Source: a virus (taxonomy: Duplodnaviria > Heunggongvirae > Uroviricota > Caudoviricetes). From it: DNA of 10,361 nt. This document shows, in pieces, positions 4,215-5,189 of this stretch. A program made the translations under genes and the position numbers. Numbering within the stretch: the first letter of the stretch is position 1; each line of letters begins with the position of its first letter. The DNA lies in the IMG/VR virus record IMGVR_UViG_2563366976_000003, positions 1 through 10,361 of that record. One strand, 5' to 3'. A model generated the notes under the pieces. That model was not told the DNA's origin. It did not search any database and was given only the letters and a program-made list of their open reading frames with translations.

Positions 4215-4407
4215 GAATCCTCCCGGGCGGGATAATGTTGTGAGTCAGATAAGGAGCAGGCTGAAGTCCGGAAGTTACAGGACAATGGCAGAAGGGAGAC
4301 TACAGCCCGCAATTCGAAAAAGACCGCGCAGTTGCGCAGAGTGATTACTATGGGGTATTATTCGCCAGCTGAAATATTACTTCACGTTTTATTGTTTATT
4401 CCTTGCC

Positions 4408-4436
4408 GCCCGCGTCTCCCAGCGCGGGCTTTTTTT
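4408..4436 (+). terminator. plus-strand intrinsic terminator (GCCCGCG / 8-nt loop / CGCGGGC followed by T7)
   Basis: Perfect 7-bp GC stem at 4408-4414 and 4423-4429, then TTTTTTT at 4430-4436. On the minus strand no T-run follows, so it is unidirectional for plus-strand transcripts. Confidence 0.5.
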
Positions 4437-4443
4437 GTCCATA

Positions 4444-4680
4444 AGAAAGCCCCTCCGGAGAGGGGCTAAAGCCGCGTATCTGTATCATCATGCACATGGT
4501 GCCGGGTGCCTCCCGGTGAGTTCAGCCCGGTGCCACTAAACCCGCGTCATTCTCGTTTTGATAATCAGAGATTATACCGTCACCAGTCGCCCCTCCGCTC
4601 AGGGGGATTCACCATGCGAAATTTTTTTAACAAATGCCCAGTCTGACAGGCAACTGTCAACTTACTGAATTGTGAGCAAC
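4444..4680. repeat. copy A of an approximately 230-bp structured direct repeat
   Basis: Shares four conserved blocks with copy B: hairpin agcccctc-cgga-gaggggct (4448-4467); atggtgccgggtgcctcccggtga; gcccctccgcNcagggggattcaccatgc; ctgaattgtgag. The core between blocks differs from copy B. Confidence 0.7.
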
Positions 4681-4715
4681 ATAGCATTTAACGGGGAACC
4701 TGTTTTCTGCAGTAA

Positions 4716-4925
4716 AAAGGCCCACCGGAGCGGATGGGCCTGGAAGGATAGCGGTCATGTGATGCCGGTTTCCCGGTAACTCAGCACCGGTATCTGAGTC
4801 AACGTTTTCTCTACTGGGTCATTTCCGATACGCCCTGCCTGCTGACAGGCTTTCATCACATCTGAAAATATAGCACCCTGACTGATACTGTAGTACCTAA
4901 GGTTCCAGAAACTGTGATGTATCCG
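4716..4925. repeat. degenerate third copy of the same repeat unit
   Basis: Hairpin ggccca-ccggagcgga-tgggcc (4719-4740) sits at the position of block 1 with a different stem sequence; a block-2-like gtgatgccggtttcccggtaactcagcaccggt and a block-3-like gccctgcctgctgacaggctttcatcacat follow in the same order. Confidence 0.45.
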
Positions 4926-4930
4926 GCACA

Positions 4931-5150
4931 GAAAAGCCCCTCCGGAGAGGGGCTGGAGAGTGGCGCTATGTGCCATTGCATGGTGCCGGGTGCCTCCCGG
5001 TGAATTCAGTACCAGCACCTGAATCCGCGATTATCCCATATACCTACTCGCTGATTGCCCCTCCGCACAGGGGGATTCACCATGCCAGTTTCTTTTAACA
5101 AACTCCCCGCAAACCAGACAACAGTCAACCGCCTGAATTGTGAGACATTT
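4931..5150. repeat. copy B of the approximately 230-bp structured direct repeat
   Basis: Same four blocks as copy A, including an identical hairpin at 4935-4954 and the atggtg...caccat long-range complementarity. Confidence 0.7.
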
Positions 5151-5180
5151 AAAAAAAAGCCCGCAAAAGCGAGCCAGGGA
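5151..5180 (-). terminator. intrinsic terminator-like hairpin directly after the tRNA cluster
   Basis: Minus strand reads GCTCGC-TTTT-GCGGGC (one U-G pair) followed by TTTTTTTT, beginning about 10 nt after the 3' end of the last tRNA. Confidence 0.45.
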
Positions 5181-5189
5181 AAATAAGTG

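Follow-up and report, generated by a model that had tools for sequence, protein, structure and literature searches.

Probable small-RNA island at the unoccupied toxin site of a stx-free lambdoid prophage related to Shiga toxin phages

Small RNA (sRNA) genes have been described close to the toxin genes of Shiga toxin (Stx) phages and in related prophages without toxin. The STnc100 element is found 75 nt downstream of the stx2 operon (PMC12370729), and for the copy after stx2B an overlap with the Hfq-binding sRNA EcOnc27/sRNA103 has been described (PMC12711010), these names being used as aliases of that copy. In strain EDL933, 11 STnc100 copies are transcribed, one of which has been validated by Northern blotting (PMC5331693), and EcOnc42 is sited 3' of stx1AB (Sy et al., PMC7547250). 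The PasD sRNAs of enteropathogenic Escherichia coli (EPEC) are Hfq-dependent and abundant, have many trans targets, and are structurally related to STnc100 (PMC8550237; bioRxiv 10.64898/2026.05.13.724894). The esterase gene nanS-p is also on record in non-Stx prophages (PMC10462455). Here we describe a stretch of 10,361 nt of Caudoviricetes DNA (positions 1 to 10,361 of IMG/VR record IMGVR_UViG_2563366976_000003), which is called the window below, with the main focus on the 975 bp at 4215-5189 between the start codon of a nanS-p-type esterase gene and the third of three tRNA genes. The window is very probably the late region of a stx-free lambdoid prophage on a Stx-phage backbone, in which this interval forms a small-RNA island with four elements: two STnc100 copies (A and B), a decayed unit (M) between them, and a convergent EcOnc42-type gene just upstream of nanS-p. 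The order of the backbone is Q, PR'/tR', the ileZ-argN-argO tRNAs, the toxin site, the sRNA module, nanS-p, S, R and Rz. An earlier note on this DNA had delimited the interval exactly, as the gap between the esterase open reading frame (ORF) at 2361-4214 and the tRNA-Arg(tct) gene at 5190-5266, but had taken it for a non-coding, empty segment, while three to four sRNA genes or relics were found in it.

The late region of the window is encoded on the minus strand, as is evident from the ORF listing, ARAGORN and Pfam. On this strand, copy A (4924-5114; 136.3 bits, E 1.2e-30) and copy B (4437-4646; 165.4 bits, E 4e-38) match the Rfam model of STnc100 (RF02076) over its full length (model positions 1-206) and above its gathering score of 47 bits. 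The structured repeats mentioned in the earlier note are thus real and far above chance, as these E-values and the number of terminator-like hairpins in the interval (10 observed against 1.6 expected, five of them on the late strand) indicate. The two copies stand in tandem, 468 nt apart, and are about 80% identical over the conserved block with different variable stretches; direct repeats at 468/484-nt spacing between units confirm the duplication. Copy B is collinear with the single STnc100 of the Stx2a phage LC616079 (L001 in the coordinates below). The likely transcript of copy A runs from about 5085 to 4930 (roughly 156 nt, with a terminator stem at 4954-4935) and that of copy B from about 4617 to 4440 (roughly 178 nt, with a stem at 4467-4448), so that both copies have the 3' Rho-independent terminator and the location in a prophage late region that characterize STnc100.

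Unit M (4712-4885, minus) scores 30.1 bits (E 0.0018), below the gathering score. It retains the central hairpins and a terminator (4741-4718), and is without the promoter block, the first hairpin and the 5' motif GCAUGGUGAAUCC of the full copies. Because it lacks this motif and the promoter block and scores below the threshold, it is read as a decayed STnc100 copy, probably a relic. Unit M was found in five phage records only, with about 85% identity. The possibility that it is a PasD homologue was ruled out, as PasD aligns to the 5' 40 nt of A and B only and the motif is missing from M.

Copies A and B share the motif GCAUGGUGAAUCC, which is the site of the mapped PasD 5' end in an alignment with the Stx2a copy, PasD1 and PasD2; the +1 of unit A was placed by homology to this end, which had been mapped by RNA-seq and Northern blotting. 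Both also share a promoter-like block, TTGnCT, 18 nt and TGnTAAAAn, which finishes 7 nt before +1. In copy A this block occupies 5092-5121 on the minus strand (-35 TTGTCT at 5121-5116, TG at 5100-5099, -10 TAAAAG at 5097-5092, and +1 G at 5085), and in copy B 4624-4653 on the same strand (-35 TTGCCT at 4653-4648, TG at 4632-4631, -10 TAAAAA at 4629-4624, and +1 G at 4617). Each copy is therefore predicted to have its own sigma-70-type extended -10 promoter in addition to its intrinsic terminator. In a comparison of 55 distinct upstream sequences, which came from 120 viral contigs, no other upstream feature was as well conserved as the TTTGTTAAAA block; it is kept even where the other upstream DNA is unrelated, and we infer that the blocks of A and B function as promoters. 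Judging by the PasD 5' end, the first ~29 positions of the Rfam model look like promoter DNA and not like transcript.

A consensus structure was calculated with RNAalifold for 41 diverse units taken from the window, L001, the Stx1c phage PQ600364 (L006) and viral contigs (alignment A4). It contains 28 pairs, 12 of which have compensatory changes on both sides, and the hairpin at alignment columns 83-110 covaries, which is the conserved structure expected of STnc100. The fold z-score of copy A is -2.36. In the alignment, the conserved scaffold is broken by two hypervariable stretches (columns ~30-82 and ~128-180). These stretches combine differently among copies, a B-type internal stretch being joined to an A-type 3' stretch in L101, and this suggests recombination between STnc100 copies.

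It is quite unlikely that the STnc100-like units are instead cis structures of the late transcript, namely a terminator/insulator array or RNase sites tuning the Q-dependent expression of nanS-p and the lysis genes, with the stable fragments of other strains as by-products. Five late-strand terminator-like hairpins within 975 bp would fit such a role, as would the terminator of unit M, which is present while its promoter block is absent, and StxS, a by-product of PR'/tR' termination (PMC7547250), offers a parallel to the location of the units between PR' and the lysis genes. However, the distance between the promoter-like block and the mapped PasD 5' end is fixed, and the block is retained in many upstream contexts that are unrelated. 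Moreover, both PasD and the STnc100 copies are abundant in uninduced lysogens, and PasD is dependent on Hfq and has many trans targets (PMC8550237; PMC5331693). A cis role and an sRNA role are not mutually exclusive.

The fourth element of the proposed sRNA island lies on the plus strand at 4255-4436, where it runs antisense to the late operon and converges with STnc100-B. Its sequence aligns without gaps to the EPEC PP6 sRNA E2348C_1409.E2348C_1408.IGR (169/182 identities, 93%). This EPEC sRNA was seen by Hfq RIL-seq (ligation and sequencing of interacting RNAs) in hundreds of chimeras with the 5' untranslated regions (5'UTRs) of cfa and dppA, has the target motif GGCAAGG, and is listed as a homologue of EcOnc08/21/42 of enterohaemorrhagic E. 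coli (EHEC) (PMC8550237 table S6). In the window, the complementary seed CCUUGCC (~4400-4406) is intact and unpaired in the predicted fold of the plus-strand RNA, the terminator at 4408-4429 with its U-run is also intact, and, in agreement with EPEC PP6, 41 nt separate the start of the gene from the start codon of the esterase, which is on the opposite strand. Full-length homology, seed, terminator, position and orientation thus all place the window copy in the EcOnc42 group. The corresponding element is nearly identical in the Stx2a phage, and in the Stx1c phage it is diverged, with the CUUGCC seed core and the terminator retained. The link to EcOnc42 itself is suggested by the annotation in the EPEC paper together with these alignments to the Stx1c and Stx2a phages.

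A promoter-like site, ATGCCA-17-GATAAT (4208-4236, plus), could perhaps drive the plus-strand sRNA. It is conserved in alignment A3, yet this conservation is confounded by the start codon and ribosome-binding site of the esterase gene, which it overlaps on the other strand. On the minus strand, a terminator-like hairpin (CTGCGCAACTGCGCGG followed by TCTTTTT) is situated at 4324-4339, about 100 nt upstream of where the esterase gene starts, and both its sequence and its position are similar to those of the PasD terminator; read from the plus strand, these bases make up an internal stem of the EcOnc42-like RNA. Several weak Rfam matches were rejected: OmrA-B (RF00079; 4348-4436, plus; 25.2 bits and E 0.26, below its gathering score of 40 bits) corresponds to the 3' half of the EcOnc42-like sRNA, Plastid-ycf2 to the antisense strand of a tRNA, and AaHKsRNA20 (E 0.84) to noise.

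No Pfam match was obtained for any of the 10 ORFs of at least 40 amino acids overlapping the interval, and the sole RefSeq call in it is a pseudogene fragment, none of the sRNAs being annotated in the identical prophages. Three of the ORFs match PHROG families without known function. The strongest match (phrog_23557, E 7e-30) is a 55-amino-acid ORF in unit M (4755-4916, minus), which is annotated as a hypothetical protein in some phage records; the other two families, phrog_24488 and phrog_27294, are matched at E 4e-11 and 2.7e-18 by the plus-strand ORFs 4506-4646 and 5055-5186. From these matches it might be supposed that the interval encodes one or more small proteins and that the RNA matches are secondary, which we consider very improbable. 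PHROGs are built from predicted ORFs. When compared with the phage copies of ~85% identity, the unit-M ORF has 24 mismatches, which are spread evenly over the codon positions (7/9/8), and its codon changes are 12 nonsynonymous against 5 synonymous; furthermore, the window has ATA in place of the ATG and shows no Shine-Dalgarno spacing. The substitution pattern and the lost start codon led us to reject it as a real gene and to regard it as a recurrent ORF mis-call. The ORFs of phrog_24488 and phrog_27294 are also judged to be mis-calls because they are antisense to the STnc100 genes. The interval thus gives no coding signal, in agreement with the earlier note, which had seen no credible ORF there. 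All three PHROG families seem to be derived from mis-called ORFs that cover STnc100-type sRNA genes or the relic.

For the search of toxin genes, Stx2A/B of L001 (LC616079) and Stx1A/B of L006 (PQ600364) were used as queries. The tblastn search of the window with these proteins gave noise only (best E 0.69 and 1.2), and short-word blastn with the whole stx regions matched the flanks only. Accordingly, the window is without stxA and stxB, whose place in a Stx-converting phage is between nanS-p and the late-region tRNAs/Q, and Q, PR'/tR', the tRNAs, nanS-p, S, R and Rz are in the synteny of Stx phages with homologous flanks. The earlier note had described the prophage as a stx-negative relative of Stx phages and had named two observations that would speak against this, stx fragments in the interval and flanking genes unrelated to those around stx. 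Both were looked for: no stx fragments were detected, and the tRNAs and the esterase are homologous to the stx flanks, so that the relationship holds. The anti-sRNAs AsxR and AgvB are expected near stx, and neither had an Rfam match in the window at E up to 1.

In L001 the tRNAs occupy 3377-3625, stxA 3719-4678, stxB 4690-4959 and STnc100 5034-5248, and the esterase gene begins at ~5374. Homology between the window and L001 upstream of stx covers argO and a further 40 nt, including the hairpin GGCTCGCTTTTGCGGGCT and its T-run, and ends at window position 5152. Past stxB, the homology to L001 restarts at window 5147 (unit A) and 4675 (unit B), and that to the Stx1c phage at window 5152; the restart motif common to the Stx2a and Stx1c phages is TCACAATTCAG or TCTCAATTCAG. 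These homology breakpoints define a module junction at 5147-5152, the unoccupied insertion point of stx. In true Stx phages, the STnc100 and EcOnc42-like module sits between stxB and nanS-p. Judging by the breakpoints, the proper toxin slot is therefore a single point (5152/5147) at which the argO terminator abuts the STnc100 module, and the ~1.34-kb toxin cassette is a one-point indel. The module that as a rule comes after the toxin thus makes up the 975-bp interval, where it has been expanded to A-M-B and the EcOnc42-like gene. The proposal of the earlier note that the slot holds the repeats instead of the toxin could not be maintained: STnc100 is normally located directly downstream of stxB in Stx1 and Stx2 phages (PMC12370729, PMC12711010), and because it lies there between stxB and nanS-p, the STnc100 repeats are the normal neighbour of the toxin, here duplicated, and not its substitute.

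The distribution of the junction was surveyed in public genomes. The window region 2300-5900 is 100% identical to prophages of ML35, VR50, avian pathogenic E. coli (APEC) BEN2908 and many clinical isolates. With a 131-nt probe and a coverage of at least 80%, the stx-free argO-STnc100 junction was found in 1,015 of 5,426 complete E. coli genomes, including the type strain ATCC 11775, and the whole three-unit interval is present in 353 complete genomes. Viral contigs contain 134 STnc100 units (35 directly after argO, 6 after stxB and 11 after unit M), the remainder of which follow assorted other genes. Of the 120 viral contigs with STnc100, only 6 have stx and 12 have tandem units, the latter in eight cases at the 467-468-nt spacing of the window.

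These numbers bear on the question of whether the prophage descends from a Stx phage by precise deletion of stxAB, or whether its backbone was always without these genes. Homology to Stx phages is clear in both flanks, and the stx2 cassette of the Stx2a phage is flanked by the 5-bp direct repeat ATCTG (L001 ~3661 and ~5001), which could mediate a microhomology deletion; a repeat of 5 bp is, however, expected by chance and is uninformative as evidence of deletion. No remnant of the toxin genes or of the toxin promoter region is left, and the flanks are 9-30% diverged from the compared Stx phages. The seamless junction is shared by the E. coli type strain and by lineages other than Stx-producing E. 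coli, and the same left edge of the STnc100 module is joined to many upstream partners that are unrelated, for which modular assembly is a better fit than repeated precise loss. We consider a loss of the toxin unlikely, and the seamless junction, its wide spread outside Stx-producing lineages and the modular left edge of STnc100 lead us to favour a common backbone into which stx has been inserted in a minority of phages.

A mechanism for the sRNA island can be proposed from the PasD, STnc100 and EcOnc42 homologues of EPEC and EHEC (PMC8550237, PMC5331693, PMC7547250, PMC12711010, bioRxiv 10.64898/2026.05.13.724894). In the lysogen, the sRNAs would be made constitutively from their own promoters and end at their own terminators. 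They would be bound by Hfq and act in trans, base-pairing with host and island mRNAs through the variable single-stranded stretches carried on the conserved hairpin scaffold. The stack of terminators would silence nanS-p and the lysis genes in the lysogen, and after induction the Q-modified RNA polymerase starting from PR' would pass all of them, by which nanS-p, S, R and Rz would be expressed.

Several points weigh against the interpretation as an sRNA island. The expression evidence comes from other strains: STnc100 appears as a discrete Hfq-associated RNA only elsewhere, in EDL933 (PMC5331693) and as EcOnc27/sRNA103 (PMC12711010), and the Hfq binding and cfa/dppA 5'UTR pairing of the plus-strand RNA come from RIL-seq in EPEC only. 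The published idea that STnc100 pairs with stxB is an 11-nt prediction only. A simple sigma-70 promoter scan missed the STnc100 promoters because their -10 lacks the final T, and they were located only via the comparison with the PasD 5' end and by conservation. The fold z-scores are modest (-2.4, -1.5 and -0.9), and the RNAalifold consensus departs in detail from the Rfam structure. Since the viral contigs were picked by the exact 5' motif and include many close relatives, the conservation among them reflects shared ancestry in part.

A wider proposal, that A-M-B and the convergent gene are a functional sRNA cargo island evolving by cassette shuffling, in which a scaffold receives exchanged hypervariable stretches, is conceivable but doubtful at present. 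If it is true, the lysogen would gain two different target specificities from the tandem copies A and B, and the argO-nanS-p site would be a general hot spot of lysogenic conversion for the toxin, sRNAs, and IraM-like or other genes.

In lambdoid phages, PR' lies directly after Q and is followed by a terminator, which is the classic arrangement for Q-dependent late transcription. The window has genes for a DUF968 protein (8635-9681), RusA (8263-8622) and the late antiterminator Q (7577-8272; Pfam PF06323, E 5.6e-84; bacteriophage antitermination protein Q in RefSeq), all on the minus strand, as are the other features of this and the following two paragraphs. A PR'-like late promoter, TTGCAA-17-TATATT (7565-7593), was detected by a consensus scan and overlaps the end of Q; its function is presumptive, and its location directly after Q fits a lambdoid PR'. 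Just downstream is a tR'-like intrinsic terminator (7507-7530) with an 8-bp GC-rich stem and a T-run. An Rfam match to Leu_leader (7504-7606; 27 bits, below threshold) was rejected, as it overlaps this terminator, which probably explains it. Further late-strand hairpins downstream of tR' follow the phosphatase gene, argO and each of the STnc100 units, and another is at 4339-4324.

The order Q, tRNAs, esterase, S, R and Rz given in the earlier note is simplified and omits a Ser/Thr kinase (6666-7430/7505), a PP2C phosphatase (5926-6669) and a C-terminal DNA-methylase remnant (5489-5815) between Q and the tRNAs, as well as DUF1327/YdfR (1646-1990) between S and R; furthermore, Rz is cut by the window edge. 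The kinase, directly after PR'/tR', matches PD-T4-6 (E 1.4e-34), mads_6 (6e-40) and Stk2 (1e-27) of PADLOC, and the 3' end of its gene overlaps the start of the phosphatase gene (5926-7430 for both). No PADLOC match was obtained for the PP2C phosphatase. The two may form an anti-phage defence pair carried as late-region cargo. The methyltransferase remnant, a pseudogene in RefSeq, has the C-terminal ~108 amino acids left of a gene that has 352 amino acids in the Stx2a phage (L001 2278-3336). Its break near 5776-5844 comes after a hairpin at ~5851-5830 that closes the kinase/phosphatase module, suggesting that this module replaced the 5' part of the methylase gene.

The tRNA genes found by ARAGORN have the anticodons CAT (5364-5439; ileZ-type, tRNA-Ile in RefSeq; 72.5 bits with Rfam), TCG (5280-5356; tRNA-Arg in the argN position; 43.4 bits) and TCT (5190-5266; tRNA-Arg, argO-type). 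A terminator hairpin at 5158-5175, GGCTCGCTTTTGCGGGCT with T8, closes the tRNA module after argO; the Stx2a phage has conserved it upstream of stx2A. The esterase (2361-4214) is a sialate O-acetylesterase of 617 amino acids, in which the SASA catalytic domain is flanked by the prophage-specific N-terminal DUF1737 and C-terminal DUF6645 in Pfam; this is the domain architecture of NanS-p (PMC10462455). It is followed by the P21-type holin S (1995-2288; PF04971, E 2.3e-32), the lysozyme R (769-1302; PF00959) and the N-terminal part of Rz (approximately 1-272), an open frame at the window edge. Between R and Rz there are two small ORFs, which are annotated in BEN2908 (window 1-1302). In the BEN2908 copy of the prophage, the lysozyme gene is interrupted by an IS66-family element, and in the window it is intact.

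Every component described here belongs to a family already known from the literature or Rfam, and the exact sequence is present in many sequenced genomes, those of non-STEC strains among them; the locus is thus an ordinary one, and the current understanding of Stx phages is not challenged. The value of the analysis is in correction and annotation, since the apparently empty toxin slot is a common and well-populated piece of E. coli prophage architecture. The sRNA homologues in EPEC and EHEC are abundant, Hfq-bound regulators, though they are unannotated here in RefSeq. The boundary of the toxin cassette has been placed within ~5 nt (5152/5147), which helps in typing prophages as stx-positive or stx-free. 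ORF callers have repeatedly yielded spurious hypothetical proteins, and even PHROG families, over these sRNA genes.

Comparison with the Stx2a phage (LC616079; 933W/Sp5 type) shows the same late-region order with homologous parts. The tRNA trio with the argO terminator is 96% identical, and the first and third tRNAs are identical. The middle tRNA has the anticodon TCG in the window versus TCT in the Stx2a phage, with several stem differences, and scores lower on the Rfam tRNA model in the window (43 versus 56 bits). NanS-p can be aligned over the full length with 54% amino acid identity, and the nucleotide identity is 94% for the holin gene, 88% for R and 91% for the Rz region. The STnc100 and EcOnc42-like module is common to both, and members of the STnc100 family agree with A and B in position relative to nanS-p and in the 3' terminator. 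In contrast, stxAB is missing from the window, where exactly the ~1.34-kb cassette is absent; Q of the window has no detectable DNA homology to the Q region of L001; the kinase and PP2C pair stands in place of the 5' two-thirds of the methylase gene; and STnc100 is present twice, with a relic unit in between, whereas L001 has a single STnc100, which starts 75 nt after stx2B. The Stx1c phage has two tandem full STnc100 units after stx1B, and tandem copies are therefore not a property of stx-free phages.

Prophage PP6 of EPEC E2348/69 (NC_011601, ~1.4415-1.4485 Mb) is stx-free like the window and shares with it Q (91% nucleotide identity), lysozyme (95%), the ileZ/argO-type tRNAs, STnc100, the plus-strand sRNA (93%), and the esterase/holin/YdfR genes (90%). 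It differs in having a single STnc100 that is split by ISEc13, in the absence of unit M and of the kinase, phosphatase and methylase remnant, and in the middle tRNA position, which is tRNA-Lys by ARAGORN. The window homology on both sides of ISEc13 (IS4-like; positions 1600-3151 of the PP6 segment L004) overlaps by 8 bp (window 5063-5070), which is consistent with a target-site duplication, and this STnc100 copy has presumably been inactivated by the insertion.

PasD1 and PasD2 of EPEC, whose coordinates were taken from PMC8550237 table S6, occupy the same slot upstream of the esterase or holin gene as the window units, with which they have the 5' motif GCAUGGUGAAUCC, the promoter geometry and the overall fold in common, and they cross-match the STnc100 model at 38-41 bits. 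In blastn, however, A and B align with PasD over its first ~40 nt and have no similarity past them, and the PasD seed CUUGUGAG and the PasD terminator were not found in the window units; by this comparison, none of the units is PasD.

EcOnc42 (aliases EcOnc21 and EcOnc08), an Hfq-binding sRNA 3' of stx1AB in O157 Sakai, belongs to the same group as the EPEC homologue (PMC8550237 table S6), and the EcOnc42-like gene of the window has the place and orientation of that homologue, between STnc100 and nanS-p. In another stx-free phage, vB_EcoS-640R1, an IraM-like anti-adapter gene (L007 3497-3832) is found on the opposite strand in the same slot, between an STnc100-like unit and the DUF1737/holin genes, and this site evidently accepts different cargo.

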